From assembly GCA_017610305.1 (NCBI GenBank), contig JAFCCJ010000003.1, positions 1 to 44,471 on the forward strand: a stretch of DNA of 44,471 bases, in the 5' to 3' direction. The stretch is from Candidatus Iainarchaeum sp. (GTDB lineage Archaea > Iainarchaeota > Iainarchaeia > Iainarchaeales > JAFCCJ01). Made by a program: the position numbers and the translations under genes. Of the stretch, positions 18,828-42,318 are shown piece after piece (positions within the stretch are counted from its first letter, which is position 1; each line of letters begins with the position of its first letter). The notes below the pieces were generated by a model. That model did not search any database. It was not told where the DNA came from and was given only the letters and a program-made list of their open reading frames with translations.

Positions 18828-18840
18828 ATTATCTCCTCCT

Positions 18841-18899
18841 GTGAAGGTCGGTGTTTGGGGAACACCTTTTGAGATAGGTTTCCCCCTGACTGCCTTCAC
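18841..18899 (-). promoter_or_regulatory. Structured radA 5' leader (long hairpin abutting the SD)
   Basis: GUGAAGG...CCUUCAC closing stem and GGGGAAACCU/AGGUGUUCCCC inner stem; TTTATAAA at 18922-18929 predicts a start near 18899. Confidence 0.55.
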
Positions 18900-18955
18900 T
18901 CATACTAATTAGATTCAGCCCTTTATAAATAGTTTTGGAGGTGGGTTTCCGGTGC

Positions 18956-19041
18956 GAAACCCCTATCCGGGTTTACGGGGCCATCCCTGCTTTGCATCCT
19001 GTTGGGCGCACGCAGGGATATTGCTCGGGCTTCGCCCTCGC
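18956..19041 (+). repeat. tRNA-trailer-like three-hairpin element, stand-alone copy (E4)
   Basis: AAACCC-CTATCC-GGGTTT-AC, ATCCCTGC..GCAGGGAT, TGCTCG-GGCTTCGCC-CTCGC; same architecture as the tRNA-Gly trailers. Confidence 0.7.
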
Positions 19042-19079
19042 TAAAACTTTAAATACCAGTTTGGACTTATTTGTGTCAA

Positions 19080-19403
19080 ATGAAGAAAGAATTTTTTATC
19101 CTCAAATCTTTCCTGAAGATATTTGTGATTTTAATTGCAGTGATTATCGGGGCAATCGTAATTATTACTATGCTGACAACTATCCCTGATGTCCCGGAAG
19201 ATATGAAAATACTCGCCAATGCTAAAATCGAATGTTTAAATCAATATTACGACGAGGCCTCCTGTAAAGCAGATGCTGATGGGTTTGGTAATTTTGGTGG
19301 CGACAAATGGAAGATTGCCTGTTGCTGGTATGTTGAAGAAGAAGCGTGTTTTGCCAAAAAATATTATGGGGAAACAATTCCTTCTCCTCTTGAGAACTGC
19401 TAA
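19080..19403 (+). CDS. Small membrane-anchored Cys-rich hypothetical protein
   Basis: N-terminal TM plus 6 Cys; TTTAAATA at 19048 fits a leaderless start at 19080. Confidence 0.65.
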   Translation: MKKEFFILKSFLKIFVILIAVIIGAIVIITMLTTIPDVPEDMKILANAKIECLNQYYDEASCKADADGFGNFGGDKWKIACCWYVEEEACFAKKYYGETIPSPLENC

Positions 19404-35758: not shown

Positions 35759-36052
35759 CTATTTCCTGGTTTTTCTGACAGCGCCGCATTCAAGGCATTT
35801 AATCTCAAGAATTTTCCCGGAAACAGTCTCTTTTGAATTCTTCCCTTTTTTCAGAAATGCCCCGCATTTTTTGCAGAATTTTGTTTTCAGTTCTGCGGGA
35901 ATAGTGACCCTGTTTTTTGTGCCAATCTTCCTCGCCAGTTCAACATATCTTTTGCTCCTTTCCGGATGTTTAGGAAACTCCTTTTCAGCAAGTTCAAACA
36001 GGCGATAAACCCTTTCCAGGGAAATTTTCTGTACCGGTGAATTCTCCCTCAT
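35759..36052 (-). CDS. rnp4: RNase P protein component 4 (Rpp21)
   Basis: ERVYRLF..A, RYVELARKI, FCKKC, KCLECG. Confidence 0.93.
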   Translation of the reverse strand: MRENSPVQKISLERVYRLFELAEKEFPKHPERSKRYVELARKIGTKNRVTIPAELKTKFCKKCGAFLKKGKNSKETVSGKILEIKCLECGAVRKTRK

Positions 36053-36067
36053 AATATCAATCCAAAT

Positions 36068-36565
36068 TTAAAAATGCATAGGCCTTCTATTATTTTTTAT
36101 GATCGATGCTGATGGTTTCTTATATTTGTCTTTAGGTTTTACGGAGTTTATTCCCAGTCCAGGCCTTTTAGATCCACCCTTCTTACCTTTTACAATATCC
36201 TTTATGTTAATCAACTTCTCCCTTACCATCTCTTCCTCGATCGTTAGAATTCTTCGTGGCTCCACGGCGATAGCCCTTTCCCCCTCTAACTGCACGCTTA
36301 AAAAATCTGCAATCTCAGTAGCACTAAGTTTGTTGTGATATTTCAAAACAGTTCTTCTTAGGCGTGCCTGTAACCAATCACTAATTTCAATTAAGGTTTC
36401 AAGCTTAATCCTAACACTTTTTGCCCGGTTTCCGCCCCTATAAAGCATAAGCCCCTTAAAAAGAATTTTTTGGATTGACTTAGGCGTTGACCTTCCAGAA
36501 TGTTTCAAAATAGCATGAATAATAGTCTCAAAATTAGGCTCACTTATTTTTTCCCATCGTTTCAT
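36068..36565 (-). CDS. Basic hypothetical protein, possible HTH
   Basis: 165 aa ORF filling the gap; LSATEIADFL is HTH-like; K/R-rich tail. Confidence 0.6.
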   Translation of the reverse strand: MKRWEKISEPNFETIIHAILKHSGRSTPKSIQKILFKGLMLYRGGNRAKSVRIKLETLIEISDWLQARLRRTVLKYHNKLSATEIADFLSVQLEGERAIAVEPRRILTIEEEMVREKLINIKDIVKGKKGGSKRPGLGINSVKPKDKYKKPSASIIKNNRRPMHF

Positions 36566-36583
36566 ATTAAAACCTTCTTTTTG

Positions 36584-36645
36584 GCGAGCGTAGCGAGCAT
36601 AGCCTCCCGAAAGGGGCTATTCCGTCAACCCGAATAGGGGTTGGA
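36584..36645 (-). repeat. tRNA-trailer three-hairpin element E1
   Basis: TCCAACCCCTATTCGGGTTGAC-GGA-ATAGCCCCTTTCGGGAGGCTA-TGCTCGCTACGCTCGC directly after tRNA-Gly(TCC). Confidence 0.75.
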
Positions 36646-36758
36646 TGCAGCCGCCGGGATTCGAACCCGGGTCAAGAGCTAACCTCTTCCTTTTTGCAAA
36701 CTTTTTGCCGGCAAAAAGGTTTTGGAAGGCTCTGATCCTACCACTAGACCACGGCTGC
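36646..36758 (-). tRNA. tRNA-Gly(TCC) with a 42-nt intron at 37/38 (intron 36681-36722)
   Basis: GCAGCCG/CGGCTGC acceptor stem, TAGTGGTA D arm, AGAGC-CTTCCA[intron]A-GCTCT, GGTTCGAATCC T arm; BHB-like pairing; CCA not encoded. Confidence 0.93.
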
Positions 36759-36816
36759 CTTGCCTAATATCTGTAATTCAGGAATATTTAAATACTTCAT
36801 TGGTTCTAATAACTCC

Positions 36817-37761
36817 ATGCAATACGCGAATATCCTAAAGGATGCTTTTAGTTCCCTTAAATACGGAAGTACCTGGCTTTATGCTGTGGCATTTCTAATA
36901 GCAATGACAATCTATTATGTCCTGTACTTTGCAATAATATTTGGCACAGTGATTAATCCTCTTGTTTTGTTGTTAATAATTCCCCTCCAAATACTTCTTA
37001 TCCTGGCTATGATTTTTATTGCGGCCCGTATAGTGTTAAAGGCTCTCAAGATATTTGGTTTGCCGACAGCAGCTTTCGACATTGTTAAATTTCTAAAGCT
37101 GTTTCTTTTGTCAATAGTTGTGGCCGTAATTTCCATATTGTCGCTAATAATTATCATCGGCATTCCCGGATGGATTGTTTCGATTCTTCTTGGAAGCCCT
37201 GCAGATATGTTGGTGCAGGTAATTCTGTTCATTGTTTGGAGTATCGTAGTTGCTTACTTGGCGCTAAGGTTTTTCCTCTATATGGCAATTTTTATTTCAA
37301 AGGATATTGGCATTATAGGCGCCCTTAAAGAAAGCTGGAATGTGACAAAAGGAAATATCCTAAGCATTATCGTTGCACACATATTATTTTTCATAGTTCT
37401 TTTCGTCCTCATGATTGTTTTATCCGTAATAGCAGGAATATTATTTTTCATAGTGACAATAATTACAGCCATAATTTCAGCGGCGATAGGGGACCTGACA
37501 ATCGCCTTTATTTTGGTTGGTTTACTCTACCTGATTTTAATTCTTGTAATGTCTGTGATTTGGGGTGCCCTTGTAGTCGTCCAGACCTATTTCCAGGTTG
37601 CAATCTATAGGGATTTGTTGGGAGGCAGATCTTCCCCACAAACCCAGTCAGAAATCCAGAAACCACAAGCCTCTAGAGCTCAAAAGCCGGCGGCACAAAA
37701 GCCAATTTCCCAATCGGGAAAATCTCAAATTTCAGGCTTGCGCAGCTCAAGAATGCCCTAA
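36817..37761 (+). CDS. Polytopic membrane protein with Q/S/K/P-rich tail
   Basis: 6-7 hydrophobic segments, GIIGALKESWNVTKGN motif; ATG 36817 is more plausible than TTG 36760. Confidence 0.75.
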   Translation: MQYANILKDAFSSLKYGSTWLYAVAFLIAMTIYYVLYFAIIFGTVINPLVLLLIIPLQILLILAMIFIAARIVLKALKIFGLPTAAFDIVKFLKLFLLSIVVAVISILSLIIIIGIPGWIVSILLGSPADMLVQVILFIVWSIVVAYLALRFFLYMAIFISKDIGIIGALKESWNVTKGNILSIIVAHILFFIVLFVLMIVLSVIAGILFFIVTIITAIISAAIGDLTIAFILVGLLYLILILVMSVIWGALVVVQTYFQVAIYRDLLGGRSSPQTQSEIQKPQASRAQKPAAQKPISQSGKSQISGLRSSRMP

Positions 37762-37849
37762 AATTTTTAAGGCCTTTTTTGTAAATACTCCAATTAATCT
37801 GATTCCAAAGGAAAGGGTTTTTAATTAAGTGAATCTAATTATAGATTAG

Positions 37850-38482
37850 ATGCCAAAAGGAAAATTTGTAGTTTTTGACGGGCTGGACGGCTCAGGCAAG
37901 GGAACAATCCTGAAAAAGATAGCGGATTATTTGGTTAAGAAAGGCATTCCTAAAAAGAATATCCTTTCCACCAAGGAACCAACAGATGGGGAGTATGGAA
38001 AGAAAGTGAGGGAACTGCAGCGCAGTGATTCATTGCCTGAGGAAGCCGCCCATGAAATGCTTGATTACTATGTGAATGACCGAATTGAGCATCTGGGCAT
38101 GGAAATAATCCCTGCCCTGAATAAGGGAAAAATCGTTTTATGCGACCGTTACAAATACTCGACAATAGTTTACCAATTTGCACAGGGCCTCCCCCTGGTT
38201 GAACTAATCCGTTTGCATGAAAAGATGCTGGTTCCGGATTTAGTGCTAATTTTTGATGTCCCCTCAGAAATAGCGCTGGAAAGGATAGTGAAGGACAAGA
38301 ACAGGGACTTGATTGAAAAGTTCGAGAAAAAAGACTTTCTAGATAGGGTAAGAAATAAGTTCCTGGATTTGCCCAATTTCATACTCGGCGAAAACATAAA
38401 AATAATAGATGCCTCAAAACCAGTTGATGATGTGTTTGAGGAAACCAAAAGCGAAATCGACAAGCTACTGAAACTTTCATAG
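37850..38482 (+). CDS. tmk: Thymidylate kinase
   Basis: FDGLDGSGKGT, KEPT, DR.EH, CDRY..S...YQ, PDLVL, IIDAS. Confidence 0.95.
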   Translation: MPKGKFVVFDGLDGSGKGTILKKIADYLVKKGIPKKNILSTKEPTDGEYGKKVRELQRSDSLPEEAAHEMLDYYVNDRIEHLGMEIIPALNKGKIVLCDRYKYSTIVYQFAQGLPLVELIRLHEKMLVPDLVLIFDVPSEIALERIVKDKNRDLIEKFEKKDFLDRVRNKFLDLPNFILGENIKIIDASKPVDDVFEETKSEIDKLLKLS

Positions 38483-38491
38483 TGACAAGCA

Positions 38492-39076
38492 ATGCCTCCT
38501 AGAAGAACACAGAGAAAAATATCCGTGTGCAAAATAACTGAACCAATGGCTGATGAATTTTTCTGGAATCATAACACGCCCCCCAAAGTAAAGGTCCACT
38601 CAATCGCTGTCAGTAGGCTTGCCAAAAATCTTGCTGAACAAGCGGTAACGAAACCAAAGCTAAAAATGGAAACAACTCCTGAGCACTTATACTTTGCTGG
38701 TTTGTTGCACGATGTCGCAAAAAACCCGGGAAAAAGGTCAAATGACTTTGATCCCGAACACTCTTGGAAGGGGGGAATGGCATTGTTTAAGGCCGATAAA
38801 GAGGTCGCAAAAATCGCAGGTTATCATGATTTTTTGAATTTTGCAAGATCCGACCTCTCATTTGACCAGAAATTACTTATTTACTGCGATTTGCGGATAG
38901 TGGGGGGAAAAACCGTTACCCTAAGCACAAGAATTAATGCAATCATAAAAAAATGGAAAAAAAGCCCCCGATATAAAATCTGGGCGGAAGAAGTTAAAGA
39001 AGCAAAAAGCCACGCATTTGCATTTCAAAGATTGCTGGAAGAAAACGGAATCAAAATTAATTCAAAGATCCACTGA
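38492..39076 (+). CDS. HD-domain metal-dependent phosphohydrolase
   Basis: HSIAV, AGLLHDVAK, EH...G, YHD, YCD. Confidence 0.85.
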   Translation: MPPRRTQRKISVCKITEPMADEFFWNHNTPPKVKVHSIAVSRLAKNLAEQAVTKPKLKMETTPEHLYFAGLLHDVAKNPGKRSNDFDPEHSWKGGMALFKADKEVAKIAGYHDFLNFARSDLSFDQKLLIYCDLRIVGGKTVTLSTRINAIIKKWKKSPRYKIWAEEVKEAKSHAFAFQRLLEENGIKINSKIH

Positions 39077-39082
39077 TTTTCT

Positions 39083-39148
39083 GCGAGGCTAAAAGCCGAG
39101 CAAGGCCCCCCGAAGGGGGGTGCCTTGTCAACTGAGGCTTCAGTTGAA
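39083..39148 (-). repeat. tRNA-trailer three-hairpin element E2
   Basis: TTCAACTGAAGCCTCAGTTGAC-AAGGCACCCCCCTTCGGGGGGCCT-TGCTCGGCTTTTAGCCTCGC directly after tRNA-Gly(CCC). Confidence 0.78.
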
Positions 39149-39219
39149 TGCAGCCGCCGGGATTCGAACCCGGGTCAGAAGCTTGGGAAGCTCCTATGCT
39201 ACCACTACACTACGGCTGC
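39149..39219 (-). tRNA. tRNA-Gly(CCC)
   Basis: GCAGCCGTAGTGTAGTGGTAGCATAGGAGCTTCCCAAGCTTCTGACCCGGGTTCGAATCCCGGCGGCTGCA folds as a 71-nt cloverleaf. Confidence 0.96.
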
Positions 39220-39273
39220 ATCATAAAACTTTCCCACGAAAGCAATTTAATTGTTTTATTTAGTGTTTTATCA

Positions 39274-40404
39274 ATGGACGAGCTAAAACTGATTTATCTG
39301 ATCAATTTCCTGCGAAGAATCTTCATATTCTCCACACAATTCTACCTCCCCTTTTATTTCCTTGAACTGGGATTCAATGGTTTGGAGGTGGGAATCCTCT
39401 TTGCCCTGTTTGCAATCCCCTCACTCCTAACAACCCTTCCCACAGGCCTGCTTAATGACAGGTTTACGGTAAAAAGATTAATCTTCGTAGGCCTGCTGAT
39501 GCTTATGGCCCATTACATAGGCCTTGCACTGATTAATTCCTTTTTTGGCATGGCAATACTCCTTTTCATCGGGGGACTGGGAAACAACATCTCTGAAACC
39601 TCAATAAGCTCATTTGTCCTGAAAAAGGTAAAGGGCGAAAAGGGAAAGGAATTCAGCATTTACACCTCGGCAAATTTCCTCGGCGTTGCGGCAGGCTTCC
39701 TGATAGGGGGAATTCTTCTCCAGTTCATTCCCTTTACAACAGTTTTCTGGATTATTGCCGCACTTTATTTTCTGCTCCTGTTCCTCACATTCCCGCTTTC
39801 AGAAACAATTTTCCACAGCGAGAAATTGGGAAAATACAAATCAGATTTGCTCAACCGCAATGTCCTTGTTTTTGCCCTGATCCTCTTCCTCTTCTCCCTC
39901 CACTGGGGGGCGGAAAGGGTCTCCTATTCCCCGTTCTTAAGGGAGGTGCTGAACCTAAACTTCTTTGAATCCGCAATTTATATGACCCTCCCGCTAATTG
40001 CACTTGCCGCGGTTGTGCTTCTCCTCGGGAGGAGAATCGATAAAGTGAAAAGTGTGAGAAAATATTTCTTTGCGGCAATCTTCCTAAGTGGCGCCGGGCA
40101 TATAGCAATGACAATCCCTGATTTGGGAATTTCATTTATTTCCCGAGTAATCCATGAAATCGGGGACGGGGTTCTTGATCTTGTTGTGCTTATAGGGATC
40201 GCAAAGCTTTTCAAAGATGCAAGAATCGGGGGCAATTCCTCATTCATTTTTTTGATGGCAACAACAGGTTTATTTGTAGGCTCCCTAATTTTCGGTCCAA
40301 TAGCAGAAACCTATGGCCATTCAATGCCCCTAATCATTTCAGGAATTATTTCATTAGTTGCATTGGTGATTGCATTCTTTGGAATGGACTGGATAAAGAA
40401 ATAA
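39274..40404 (+). CDS. MFS transporter
   Basis: About 12 TM, motif A GLLNDRF; start 39274 (the upstream ATG lies antisense within the tRNA). Confidence 0.9.
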   Translation: MDELKLIYLINFLRRIFIFSTQFYLPFYFLELGFNGLEVGILFALFAIPSLLTTLPTGLLNDRFTVKRLIFVGLLMLMAHYIGLALINSFFGMAILLFIGGLGNNISETSISSFVLKKVKGEKGKEFSIYTSANFLGVAAGFLIGGILLQFIPFTTVFWIIAALYFLLLFLTFPLSETIFHSEKLGKYKSDLLNRNVLVFALILFLFSLHWGAERVSYSPFLREVLNLNFFESAIYMTLPLIALAAVVLLLGRRIDKVKSVRKYFFAAIFLSGAGHIAMTIPDLGISFISRVIHEIGDGVLDLVVLIGIAKLFKDARIGGNSSFIFLMATTGLFVGSLIFGPIAETYGHSMPLIISGIISLVALVIAFFGMDWIKK

Positions 40405-40412
40405 ATTAATTA

Positions 40413-40473
40413 GCGAGGCTTAAGGCCGAGCAATCCCCGAAGGGGAGTCATGTCAACTGGAATGGCAGTTGAA
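40413..40473 (-). repeat. tRNA-trailer three-hairpin element E3
   Basis: TTCAACTGCCATTCCAGTTGAC-ATGAC-TCCCCTTCGGGGA-TTGCTCGGCCTTAAGCCTCGC directly after tRNA-Gly(GCC). Confidence 0.78.
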
Positions 40474-40544
40474 TGCGACCGCCGGGGGTCGAACCCGGGT
40501 CAGAACCTTGGCAAGGTCCTATCCTACCACTAGACTACGATCGC
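40474..40544 (-). tRNA. tRNA-Gly(GCC)
   Basis: GCGATCGTAGTCTAGTGGTAGGATAGGACCTTGCCAAGGTTCTGACCCGGGTTCGACCCCCGGCGGTCGCA folds as a 71-nt cloverleaf. Confidence 0.96.
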
Positions 40545-40602
40545 CTTAATTAGATAAAAAAGCTATAATATTTTTCTGAAAGGAAAGCCTTTAAAACAAA
40601 TT

Positions 40603-42318
40603 TCAGGCCCTCTTCCTCAGAAAAAAGAGTTGCTGCACTATTACCATAGCAATTATTCCCACAAGAACCCCGATTCCTATGAACGTAAGCCATTGCCTAC
40701 CAAGCAATTCCTCAATTAAGTTTTTTGGCTCGGGTTTTGGCGGCATTTCCCCATTTTTGAAAATCTCGAGGGAATCGTCCTCCCCTATCTCAATCCTGTA
40801 AATTTCCGGAGTGGTTGCGCCTATTTTAAGGTAGATGCTCCCGGGAACAAAATTATTGAAGGAATAGGAAAATGTTCGCCTTCTCTTTCCCGGGACCAAC
40901 TCCTCATACTCCGTAAACTTCCCTGAATAATTCAGCTCGATTGGAATACTGCCATCATTCAAACCGCTGTTGTAGAGTGCAATCTTAATGGTCAGGCTCT
41001 CCTCATCGATGGATGGAATAATGTCCTCCACCTCGATTAATGCCTCCACCTGCTGCCCGGCATAATAGGGATAAACATCAATGCCCCCTGAAAAATTCTG
41101 GTCCATTCCCTGCAAACTAAATGAATAGCGTTTCTTGAAACCATCATCCCCCTCCAGCGGAGCATAGATTTCCCAGGAAATTGTTTTGCTTTCTAGTGGT
41201 TTCAGCCAAACCATCCTCTTTTTGTCACCAAACTCAAAATCCTCGTGCATTGAAAGGCTTAAAGGATAGATGATGTGCTCCCCTGTTTTATTTTCAATAA
41301 CTGCATTGATGTCAAATAGCTGGTTTAGATAAAGGAAATCAGGCGCAGAAATTTCCATAGATGTAATCCCCTCAAAGAATTCAACAGAATTTATTTCAAC
41401 CTCGGGCTCATGAAGCTGGGTTGAGACAGTTATCGGCCTTCTGCTCCTTAATGTAACAATAAGGTTTATCGTCGCATTTGCATCGATTTCTTTTGCCAGT
41501 GAAATATGGGTCCCGTCAAGATAGCCCGCCTCACCATATGTGGAATCCACCCCAACCCATTTATCCCCTGCCAGTGCCTCAATCCAGCCATGGTTGCCGA
41601 ATTTCTCCCCGTCAAAACTGATTCCTGAAACATATCTTGCAGGAATTCCCTTAATCCTCAGGAATGCCGCACTGAGATTTGCGAATTCATCACAAACCCC
41701 CCTCCTGCTCAGATAGGTTTCCTTCGCACTCCAGGTCCCCTCATAGTAATCATAATCATACTCAATATTCCTGTTTACCCATTCAGTAATATCCCGCATT
41801 GCAAGAATTCCCGAGTCAGATGCAAATTCCAGGTCTGCCTTTTGAATTAGCTCTGAGTCATTGGATTCAATATGCTTGGTATTCCAGGTGAATTTCTGCA
41901 GCGATGGAATAATCTCGACAGGGATGCTGAAATCATCCTTAATTCCCGGCAATGATTCTGTAACCAGGTCGGCATTTATCTCAACCGTAAAGTCCCGGCT
42001 ATCTTTGAATCTTTGTAAATCACTAACATCAAATGCGGCATACCTGTTCCCGTTGTCAATTTCATGCCTTGGCCTGAAAACCTCGTCGCCGATAAGCAAT
42101 TTCTCATCAATATTGGTTATGCGGTGGTCCAAGGTGTCGGAAAAGGTGAGCATATTCACAATCATCAGGTCGCCATTTCCAATATCTCCCTCAATAGTTC
42201 CTGTGGCACGTAATTTTACGGAGACATCAATTGATTTTACCTTGTTTGGCGCAAATGCATAAGTGTTAATTGAAAGCGTCAGAAGCAAAAGCAGGATAAT
42301 GGCAATTGATTTCTTCAT
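40603..42318 (-). CDS. Secreted, membrane-anchored transglutaminase-like protein
   Basis: Signal peptide MKKSIAIILLL; GVCDEFA, GIPARYVSG, HGWIE, W..VDST (Cys-His-Asp triad); C-terminal TM. Confidence 0.9.
   Translation of the reverse strand: MKKSIAIILLLLLTLSINTYAFAPNKVKSIDVSVKLRATGTIEGDIGNGDLMIVNMLTFSDTLDHRITNIDEKLLIGDEVFRPRHEIDNGNRYAAFDVSDLQRFKDSRDFTVEINADLVTESLPGIKDDFSIPVEIIPSLQKFTWNTKHIESNDSELIQKADLEFASDSGILAMRDITEWVNRNIEYDYDYYEGTWSAKETYLSRRGVCDEFANLSAAFLRIKGIPARYVSGISFDGEKFGNHGWIEALAGDKWVGVDSTYGEAGYLDGTHISLAKEIDANATINLIVTLRSRRPITVSTQLHEPEVEINSVEFFEGITSMEISAPDFLYLNQLFDINAVIENKTGEHIIYPLSLSMHEDFEFGDKKRMVWLKPLESKTISWEIYAPLEGDDGFKKRYSFSLQGMDQNFSGGIDVYPYYAGQQVEALIEVEDIIPSIDEESLTIKIALYNSGLNDGSIPIELNYSGKFTEYEELVPGKRRRTFSYSFNNFVPGSIYLKIGATTPEIYRIEIGEDDSLEIFKNGEMPPKPEPKNLIEELLGRQWLTFIGIGVLVGIIAMVIVQQLFFLRKRA

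Follow-up and report, generated by a model that had tools for sequence, protein, structure and literature searches.

A three-hairpin element at tRNA genes of Candidatus Iainarchaeum and related archaea, probably non-autonomous and mobile

Small DPANN genomes are thought to be poor in repeated DNA. Here, we describe a structured repeat of 60-90 nt, composed of three hairpins (H1, H2 and H3) and an AT-rich tail, that occurs in one DPANN order and was noticed in a 44,471-nt stretch of a Candidatus Iainarchaeum sp. assembly (GCA_017610305.1, contig JAFCCJ010000003.1, positions 1 to 44,471; hereafter the window). Against that expectation, this assembly holds about 30 copies of the one repeat and half of its tRNA genes are decorated with it. 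Three copies, E1, E2 and E3, directly follow the three tRNA-Gly genes of the window, and they are probably resident copies of a non-autonomous, structure-dependent mobile element. That the family is mobile is well supported: a congener carries copies at two sites where this assembly has none, and in a related metagenome-assembled genome (MAG) one stretch of the element recurs 18 times and copies are flanked by direct duplications of 10-28 nt.

The assembly (G000, 1.24 Mb) was compared with a congener that is about 83% identical to it (G001) and with related genomes including G010 (a MAG, 83% complete), G017 (a complete single contig with 12-15 copies), G026, G029 and G110; loci fetched from the genomes carry L-numbers and contigs C-numbers, and from the relatives the best-scoring copies were fetched. 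Three covariance models were used: R1, built from 12 copies; R2, a broader model; and R3, built from 54 copies of seven other genomes and from zero G000 copies.

The tRNA-Gly trailers of the window and the family to which they belong

The genes and elements in question are as follows, the R3 scores being those of a search of 36000-41000 with filters off and the E-values being rough, since the models were short-calibrated.

36646-36758, minus strand: tRNA-Gly(UCC) with an intron of 42-44 nt (Rfam RF00005, 53.8 bits; also ARAGORN)
36583-36645, minus strand: E1 (R1 60.6 bits; R3 40.3 bits, E 5.6e-8); H1 36625-36644, linker 36619-36624, H2 36601-36618, H3 36584-36598 (short form GCTCG CTAC GCTCGC)
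39149-39219, minus strand: tRNA-Gly(CCC) (Rfam RF00005, 67.2 bits)
39082-39148, minus strand: E2 (R1 68.3 bits; R3 46.5 bits, E 2.5e-9); H1 39128-39147, linker 39122-39127, H2 39104-39121, H3 39083-39101
40474-40544, minus strand: tRNA-Gly(GCC) (Rfam RF00005, 60.1 bits)
40412-40473, minus strand: E3 (R1 68.9 bits; R3 31.1 bits, E 5.1e-6); H1 40453-40472, linker 40447-40452, H2 40434-40446, H3 40413-40431

With default filters over the whole window, R3 found E2 and E1 and missed E3. The three elements are 62-67 nt long, and at each junction the discriminator A is followed by one unpaired pyrimidine and then by the element. H1 consists of (Y)CAACnn, a 6-nt loop and nnGTTGA, with a stem of 6-7 bp, and a 6-nt linker joins it to a GC-rich H2 capped by TTCG or TTTCG; TT or AT follows, and H3 closes the element with GCTCG and CTCGC around an inner hairpin. 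A preliminary description, made by a model from the letters of the window, had placed such an element behind each tRNA-Gly gene from the base past the discriminator; its coordinates were right to one base, and the segment map bears out its three-hairpin architecture. Against shuffles, the fold z-scores are -1.55 (tRNA strand) and -1.85 (opposite, plus strand) for E1, -4.26 and -4.97 for E2, and -2.38 and -3.01 for E3; folding beats shuffles for E2 and E3 and is marginal for E1 on the tRNA strand.

At gathering score, tRNA was the sole Rfam 15 family matched in the window. A search of 36300-40800 at E<=10 gave overlaps with the trailers that lie far under the cut-off (DUF2815, 18.8 vs 41.2 bits; YrlA, 21.9 vs 69), and six further element loci gave tRNA matches only. 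The earlier statement that this is not a known family thus holds for Rfam 15.

The surroundings of the three elements differ. A 165-aa open reading frame (ORF) on the same strand as E1 starts at 36565, 17 nt beyond it. E2 occupies the gap between the stop of a convergent plus-strand ORF (39076) and tRNA-Gly(CCC), and E3 that between the end of another convergent plus-strand ORF (40404) and tRNA-Gly(GCC), the two stop-codon-to-tRNA gaps measuring 69-72 nt. The mechanical 418-aa frame at 39148-40404 begins at 39148, in tRNA-Gly(CCC), and its true start is probably an ATG near 39275.

That the trailers were passively duplicated along with the three tRNA-Gly genes is hardly credible. The genes lie within 4 kb of one another and E2 and E3 are 73% identical over model columns, as this history would have it; however, the element also follows Val, Arg, Met, Leu, Pro and Ala tRNAs and precedes Ser and Cys tRNAs, the stems differ by compensatory changes, and E1-E3 are mutually no closer (identity over model columns) than they are to copies beside other tRNAs. 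E1 is nearest to the trailer of a G001 tRNA-Gly(GCC) gene (0.79), with another copy elsewhere at 0.74, against 0.57 to E2 and 0.55 to E3; the nearest relative of E2 is a G001 copy antisense to tRNA-Ser (0.76).

A motif scan for the H3 box over the 1.24 Mb assembly revealed the same upstream hairpins on many contigs. Searches with a hidden Markov model (HMM) and with R1 put the number of copies in G000 at 29-30 (30 by R1) and R1 found 27 in G001. Further copies came from related genomes: R1 matched 13 of 41 relatives and 20 of 151 genomes of the order, and R2 matched 34 of the 151, in 21 of 62 genera, every positive being from the same order. An exact 20-base element word occurs in four stretches of a genome collection, labelled Candidatus Iainarchaeum archaeon or uncultured archaeon, which supplied no new context, and two exact element words gave zero matches in viral and metagenome contig collections.

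The tRNA set of G000 numbers 37 genes (36 by Rfam and one tRNA-Ala found later), of which 18 bear a copy. Thirteen (among them three Gly and two Arg tRNAs, and also Val, Met, Leu, Pro and Ala) have a sense copy at the 3' end, four have an antisense copy flush at the 5' end (three Ser and one Cys), and in tRNA-Ala(CGC) the copy lies within an intron of about 113 nt, beginning at the 5' splice site. In all tRNA-linked copies H1 faces the tRNA, about 0-3 nt from the end of the gene; Rfam tRNA coordinates gave flush junctions at 7 loci and placed one copy inside a tRNA. The remaining tRNAs are unadorned: 24 of 37 are without a 3' copy, and about half have plain T-rich trailers. Eleven further copies (of 30) do not abut an intact tRNA gene. 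One of these is a sense-3' copy by a tRNA truncated at a contig end, one stands in tandem behind another copy, one lies behind a duplicated tRNA-Gln 3' end, five (a fourth copy in the window included) follow a conserved TATA-like box and a 20-nt stretch, and three or four are otherwise solitary.

Similar settings recur in other genomes, with 28 sense-3' and 13 antisense-5' copies in a 103-copy set and 8 antisense-5' and 1 sense-3' in a 54-copy set, context classes that were assigned by ARAGORN within short loci and miss tRNAs at locus edges (70 of 103 'none', partly hand-corrected). G010 also has a copy in a tRNA intron, flush with the 5' splice site, and two loci (L174 and L178) resemble tRNA-Gly genes with an intronic element, both under the Rfam tRNA cut-off. 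Most tRNA-linked copies are common to G000 and G001, and orthologous tRNAs in the congeners can bear different element subtypes.

These placements narrow what the preliminary description had claimed. Its link to every tRNA-Gly gene stands within the window and fails beyond it, with 18 of 37 tRNA genes of many specificities bearing copies, and its restriction of the element to tRNA 3' ends gives way to copies flush and antisense at 5' ends, in introns and in operon junctions. A tRNA-Gly-specific signal, for which a reading of this single window would mistake the family, is ruled out by the genome-wide scans, and E1-E3 would have no role specific to glycine tRNAs.

Two observations concern tRNA annotation. 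The tRNA-Ala(CGC) gene (G000:C55:4433-4616; L085:54-237, minus strand), whose intron of about 113 nt lies at 37/38, was missed by ARAGORN and by the first whole-genome Rfam tRNA pass and was revealed by its intronic element. The tRNA-Pyl(cta) calls of ARAGORN at G000:C8:27167-27261 and G000:C44:3354-3472 are probably anticodons misread through intron placement, not pyrrolysine use.

Hairpins, covariation and the strand that folds

All three hairpins are maintained by compensatory change. In an alignment of 103 copies (A4), 89.9% of cells are paired, against 62.4% with shuffled partners and 23-42% with the partner slid by 1-3 columns, and in one of 54 copies (A5) the values are 89.9%, 66.9% and 27-46%, all of these pairing counts being inflated by the fitting of both alignments to the model; 19 of 20 pairs change on both sides in A4 (427 cells) and likewise in A5. 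Because of the size of the effect and the many differing stem sequences there is little doubt about selection on structure, which the preliminary description had proposed from stems that differ with pairing kept. The 2x2 internal loop of H3 (U,C/U,C) is near-invariant (93/95, 93/95, 90/92 and 91/92 copies). Complementarity between the H1 loop and the linker, with a mean best run of 3.36 against 2.87±0.07 in 500 shuffles (maximum 3.16), hints at a candidate pseudoknot; in the commonest G000 subtype the pairing amounts to 2 bp only, and a linker of 3-4 nt looks short for spanning H1.

A self-cleaving ribozyme, or a dedicated tRNA 3' processing signal, in the manner of the theta ribozymes is a very improbable reading of these hairpins. 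Sense-3' copies do start at the base past the discriminator, and the compactness of the element, its conserved junction bases and the pseudoknot that loop and linker may form would suit such a function, yet no Rfam ribozyme matches at E up to 10, and covariation gives three local hairpins, not a nested double pseudoknot like that of the hepatitis delta virus (HDV) ribozyme. Antisense, intronic, operon and stand-alone copies are unable to serve tRNA 3' processing, and the 24 tRNAs without a 3' copy do without the element. All 5 genomes tested encode RNase Z, so a ribozyme is unneeded for freeing the tRNAs; the idea of the element as a substitute for a missing RNase Z was ruled out by the same finding. 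The flush junction and the RNase Z gene suggest instead that at tRNA-Gly genes the element would be transcribed together with the tRNA, as its 3' trailer, and that the RNase Z of the genome would remove it by cleaving behind the discriminator.

The antisense strand of the element folds better than the sense strand. Read as GCGAG..CGAGC (tandem G·A), the H3 box is found on the antisense strand of 76/146 copies and on the sense strand of 0/146, where the same positions would form tandem U·C; C-GNA-G occurs in 100/146 antisense against 25/146 sense strands, and exact GCGNAGC in 38/146 against 0/146. Minimum free energy (MFE) folds contain 96 GNA and 22 GNRA loops on the antisense strand against 1 and 0 on the sense strand, and cUNCGg loops number 1 and 2, respectively. 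Predicted stability is greater for the antisense strand in 111 of 142 copies under RNA parameters (sense, 29) and in 110 of 142 under DNA parameters (sense, 25). This bias is a property of the element, not of local trailer use, because it is independent of the direction of the neighbouring tRNA (25 of 28 sense-3' copies and 20 of 21 antisense-5' copies). In E1-E3 it is the plus strand, and not that of the tRNA-Gly genes, that folds better.

GCGNAGC is a mini-hairpin DNA motif, and the available portions of two sources (PMC13037366, PMC3201870) treat GCGNAGC/GCGNNAGC and d(GNA) loops as extraordinarily stable. The antisense H2 and H3 of the element resemble such mini-hairpins in bearing C-GNA-G, GCGNAGC and tandem G·A; the difference is that the mini-hairpin is a structural motif, not a genetic element. 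The shared motifs are a clue that the folded form may be antisense single-stranded DNA (or RNA).

Strand and position also bear on a domesticated cis element, that is, a two-way terminator or insulator, or a 3' end protector for the tRNA and the convergent mRNA, as is reported of bacterial repetitive extragenic palindromic (REP) sequences. Such an element would account for the exact fit of E2 and E3 into the 69-72 nt that separate convergent stop and tRNA 3' end, and for the most stable hairpins lying on the antisense strand, which is the strand of the convergent gene. We nevertheless regard it as quite unlikely: E1 lies 17 nt ahead of a same-strand ORF, leaving no room for a promoter, and is probably read through, G010 copies lie inside operons, plain T-rich trailers suffice for about half of the tRNAs, and the flush junctions go unexplained.

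Evidence for mobility, points against it and possible routes

Comparison of orthologous loci yielded two clean presence/absence differences between G000 and G001. At tRNA-Val(CAC), G001 has a 60-nt copy and the collinear G000 site runs from the tRNA straight to the trailer; elsewhere, a 20-nt spacer that separates two G000 genes is taken up in G001 by two tandem copies. A 24-base stretch made up of H1 and the linker recurs 18 times in G010 (15 exact matches; the reversed control gave 0), where several copies stand at contig ends. Mosaic copies also occur, joining one identical H1-plus-linker to differing H2 and H3.

A scan for flanking direct repeats covered the 83 copies with enough flank (threshold score >=10; shuffled mean about 5-6), and scores of at least 10 were reached by 7 of the 13 from G010 and by none of the 70 from other genomes. 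Further duplications in more G010 loci and in one G110 locus bring the total to about 11 events of 10-28 bp, with lengths of 10, 12, 12, 12, 13, 14, 22, 24, 26 and 28 nt; the 28-nt and 14-nt duplications flank dimers, and one 12-nt duplication is flush on both sides. Of the 7 G010 copies scoring at least 10, 5 have the upstream repeat flush against H1, and the downstream repeat begins 7-20 nt past CTCGCA. Over all cases the tails measure 0-24 nt, are AT- or T-rich and differ between copies, and the H1 end is exact. The duplication-flanked insertions are antisense in operon junctions; at one of them (L023) the duplication includes the ATGA stop/start overlap, so both genes remain intact.

Three options had been offered in the preliminary description: a tRNA-linked RNA, a processing signal or a non-autonomous mobile element. 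The congener differences, the duplications of 10-28 nt and the 18 copies of the 24-base stretch favour the last of these, and the encoded RNase Z and the better folding of the antisense strand speak against a processing signal.

Several comparisons and ideas were set aside. Locus L064 and contig C73 have flanks that are not collinear, and their comparison was not used. The G001 tRNA-Gly(CCC) gene was rejected as an empty site; it is without an element, but rearrangement has affected the locus, where an old piece of a tRNA 5' end persists. This gene (L124, G001:C22, 2037-2107) has a GCC-type acceptor stem and has lost downstream synteny, and a 27-nt 5' fragment of a G000-like tRNA-Gly(CCC) lies ahead of it, the tRNA having apparently been replaced or rearranged. 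A 'guide' idea, in which the target would supply the 5' strand of H1 and the element the 3' strand to pair with it, arose from the 3-5 flank bases that join H1 at the two G000/G001 differences; it was rejected on finding that G010 copies carry an identical full H1 beside unrelated flanks.

A number of findings weigh against mobility of the window's copies or of the family. Flanking duplications were seen in G010 and once in G110 only, and around E1-E3 or the other copies of G000, G001 and G017 none rises above the shuffled background. Mobility of the window's copies rests on the two congener differences, and two genomes allow deletion instead. No match to PF00078 (reverse transcriptase, RT), PF01797 (Y1 transposase) or PF07282 (TnpB) was found in G000, G001, G010 or G017, a search that did not extend to DDE transposases, primase-polymerases, Cas1 or HUH Rep; G026 has one PF01797 match and none to PF00078. 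RT genes occur in 20 of the 151 genomes of the order, mostly in element-free families and in none of the copy-rich genomes listed, a distribution that counts against retroposition, although the incompleteness of MAGs (G010 is 83% complete) leaves room for an RT gene. Tyrosine recombinase genes number 1-3 per genome, with one in the complete G017. Pairs of the G·U (62) and A·C (69) kinds are equally common and carry no strand signal, and their counts by setting (8 vs 15 in sense-3' and 3 vs 5 in antisense-5' copies) are uninformative. The pairing counts come, as noted, from fitted alignments, and both the stand-alone copies led by a TATA-like box and the tRNA-linked copies kept in G000 and G001 also fit a host-useful small RNA. 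On the mobile reading, E1-E3 are probably old, fixed copies whose flanking duplications have gone.

The stand-alone copies are exemplified by the fourth copy in the window, which the preliminary description had counted and which was located as follows.

18922-18931, plus strand: TATA-like box TTTATAAATA, then the conserved stretch GTTTTGGAGGTGGGTTTCCGGTG to 18954, directly upstream of the fourth copy
18955-19042, plus strand: fourth copy, solitary, with a long branched H2 (R1 56 bits); H1 18956-18975, H2 18982-19020, H3 19023-19041

The same box and stretch precede other stand-alone copies in G000 and G001, and ahead of the fourth copy 149 nt match G001 at 95% identity. Spacing from TATA box to start in Archaea is usually about 25 nt, so transcription of the fourth copy from this putative promoter would start within a few bases of H1.

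Such boxes, placed for a start at H1, are what a host-useful small-RNA family would be expected to have, an RNA of about 65 nt and three hairpins, produced from a tRNA promoter with RNase Z or from its own promoter, bound by protein or acting in RNA metabolism, and spread by ordinary duplication. The promoter-led arrays of G017, the T runs resembling archaeal terminators in which G010 copies finish, the invariant loop and junction bases, the loop-linker complementarity above shuffled values (3.36 vs 2.87±0.07) and the retention of most tRNA-linked copies in G000 and G001 are also in its favour. We consider this reading unlikely all the same, given that about the same number of copies are antisense, at tRNA 5' ends or in operons, and have no evident sense promoter, that the antisense strand folds better (111/142), that the distribution is patchy (34/151 genomes), that copies show flanking duplications and bursts of identical sequence, and that orthologous tRNAs of the congeners bear differing subtypes.

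Other features stand near these copies. At the three G017 loci L041, L069 and L072, a common AT-rich upstream block of about 40 nt (..AAAACTTTGGCAACTGAATATGTTTAATTATTTCTTTCG) precedes a copy without H1, and in two of them a full copy follows in tandem, an arrangement that resembles a promoter-led array. The roughly 90 nt at 18832-18921 of the window, which lie upstream of a minus-strand gene start (near 18828), contain the inverted repeat GTGAAGG...CCTTCAC and fall within the 149-nt stretch that is 95% identical between G000 and G001 (most other aligned loci, about 80-86%); a conserved leader of the adjoining gene, or a regulatory RNA for it, is a possible reading, and no Rfam family matched at gathering score. 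Small-ORF cassettes lie at 19043-19403, at L090:254-489 (G000:C32) and in the 3' flanks of tRNAs on G000:C75, and share the promoter-like motif AAATAC(C/T)AGTTTGG(G/A)CTTATTTGTG ahead of them. The window cassette, whose ORF (19080-19403) would encode 107 aa with a hydrophobic start and many Cys residues, is missing from the orthologous G001 site, which has 19 nt instead. On C32 the cassette has tRNA-Gln on one side and a copy of the element on the other, and a 13-nt repeat of the 3' end of the tRNA flanks it. The cassettes may be a second kind of mobile unit with the same landing sites.

If the element is mobile, as we favour, its movement would pass through a single-stranded intermediate, and because of this the structure would be kept rather than the sequence. 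The exact 5' end, the variable tail and the variable duplications would be compatible with two routes. In the first, resembling retroposition, the sense transcript would be copied into antisense DNA; this route fits the sense promoters, the T-rich tails, the exact 5' end at an RNA processing site or transcription start, the variable tail with duplications, the mosaics and the antisense DNA-type hairpins. In the second, a polymerase halted at the base of a stable DNA fold, such as a tRNA cloverleaf of either strand or the H3 of an existing copy, would switch template with no transposase involved; the tandem copies, and the mirrored way in which copies abut both ends of tRNA genes, would follow from this. 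A more specific proposal, which we put forward tentatively as a possibility we doubt more than we believe, is that an element without its own transposase or RT moves as a folded single strand, its antisense DNA bearing the mini-hairpin and tandem G·A motifs, and is copied in exactly where a stable fold begins in the path of a polymerase or of an enzyme that processes tRNA (either tRNA end, through the cloverleaf of either strand, a splice site or an earlier H3).

Mirrored flush placement at tRNA ends and splice sites, variable duplications and no recognisable mobilising gene are unusual features, and their combination points to a route of DNA insertion that is undescribed for Archaea in the portions of the literature available to us, where no description of such an element was found either. 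If this is true, the mode of transposition would be new, whether SINE-like (short interspersed nuclear element) retroposition in Archaea or template switching at stalled forks, and so would the way in which tRNA genes shape genomes. There are practical effects as well, in that assemblies are broken (the contig ends of G010) and tRNA genes hidden (tRNA-Ala, in two scans).

Relation to known systems

Hairpins kept by compensation, presumed folding as single strands, location at gene 3' ends and composite or tandem arrays link the element to bacterial REP sequences and REPINs, which RAYT (Y1) transposases mobilise. The REP/REPIN-RAYT system, as far as the available part of PMC2817692 describes it, is likewise short, extragenic and multi-copy. 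The element differs in having three distinct hairpins, not one palindrome, in lying flush at tRNA ends, in its long variable duplications and in its archaeal host, and the element genomes G000, G001, G010 and G017 are without a Y1 transposase (PF01797).

MITEs (miniature transposable elements with inverted repeats), in the accessible portions of PMC11602168 and PMC3184786, resemble it in being non-autonomous, intergenic and multi-copy and in having flanking duplications. The element is distinguished from them by the lack of terminal inverted repeats (in G010 the 5' end GCCAACTGCT is uncomplemented at the 3' ...GCTCGCA), by duplications of 10-28 nt in place of a fixed length, by a variable 3' end and by the absence of a partner transposase among those searched for. 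Palindromes derived from IS200/IS605 have TnpA (Y1), TnpB or both as partner and insert without duplication, in contrast to the 10-28 nt duplications of G010, and G000, G001, G010 and G017 have neither PF01797 nor PF07282. An integron attC site is one long imperfect hairpin (R''-L''/L'-R') at the 3' end of gene cassettes, beside an integron integrase, unlike the three hairpins here, which mostly do not follow ORFs; the 1-3 tyrosine recombinase genes per genome were counted with integron-type integrases not told apart.

Theta ribozymes after phage tRNAs, as presented in the available part of PMC10879173, share with the element a structured RNA of about 60 nt right after a tRNA. In these ribozymes, which form a nested double pseudoknot, P1 joins the 5' end to sequence 3' of P3; the element has three local hairpins (by covariation) and no match to the HDV family, and the element also occurs antisense, in introns and far from tRNAs.

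Related short sequences at processing sites of several tRNA genes are also a trait of the archaeal transposed introns and disrupted tRNA genes covered by the accessible portion of PMC3293823; most element copies, unlike these, lie outside tRNA bodies. Read by eye only, the ends of the element were not found to form the bulge-helix-bulge (BHB) motif that the splicing endonuclease recognises, the central helix of this motif in tRNA-Ala comes from intron sequence outside the element, and an extra 25 nt of that intron carries a CGAA able to pair with the UUCG of the anticodon loop. Transposition of tRNA introns is reportedly known in Thermoproteales.

SINEs are small, transcribed and non-autonomous and are linked to tRNA genes and promoters. 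Eukaryotic SINEs and retroposed small RNAs are treated in PMC3747384, consulted in part, and the portions of the literature available to us hold nothing on a SINE-like element in Archaea. The element departs from a SINE in that its copy-rich genomes have no RT gene, its body is not tRNA-derived, its tail is AT- or T-rich, not poly(A), and it lands at exact tRNA ends in mirrored fashion. In G010 it nonetheless has the exact 5' end, the variable 3' tail and the duplications of variable length of a SINE-like retroposon, and its mosaic copies are in keeping with one as well.

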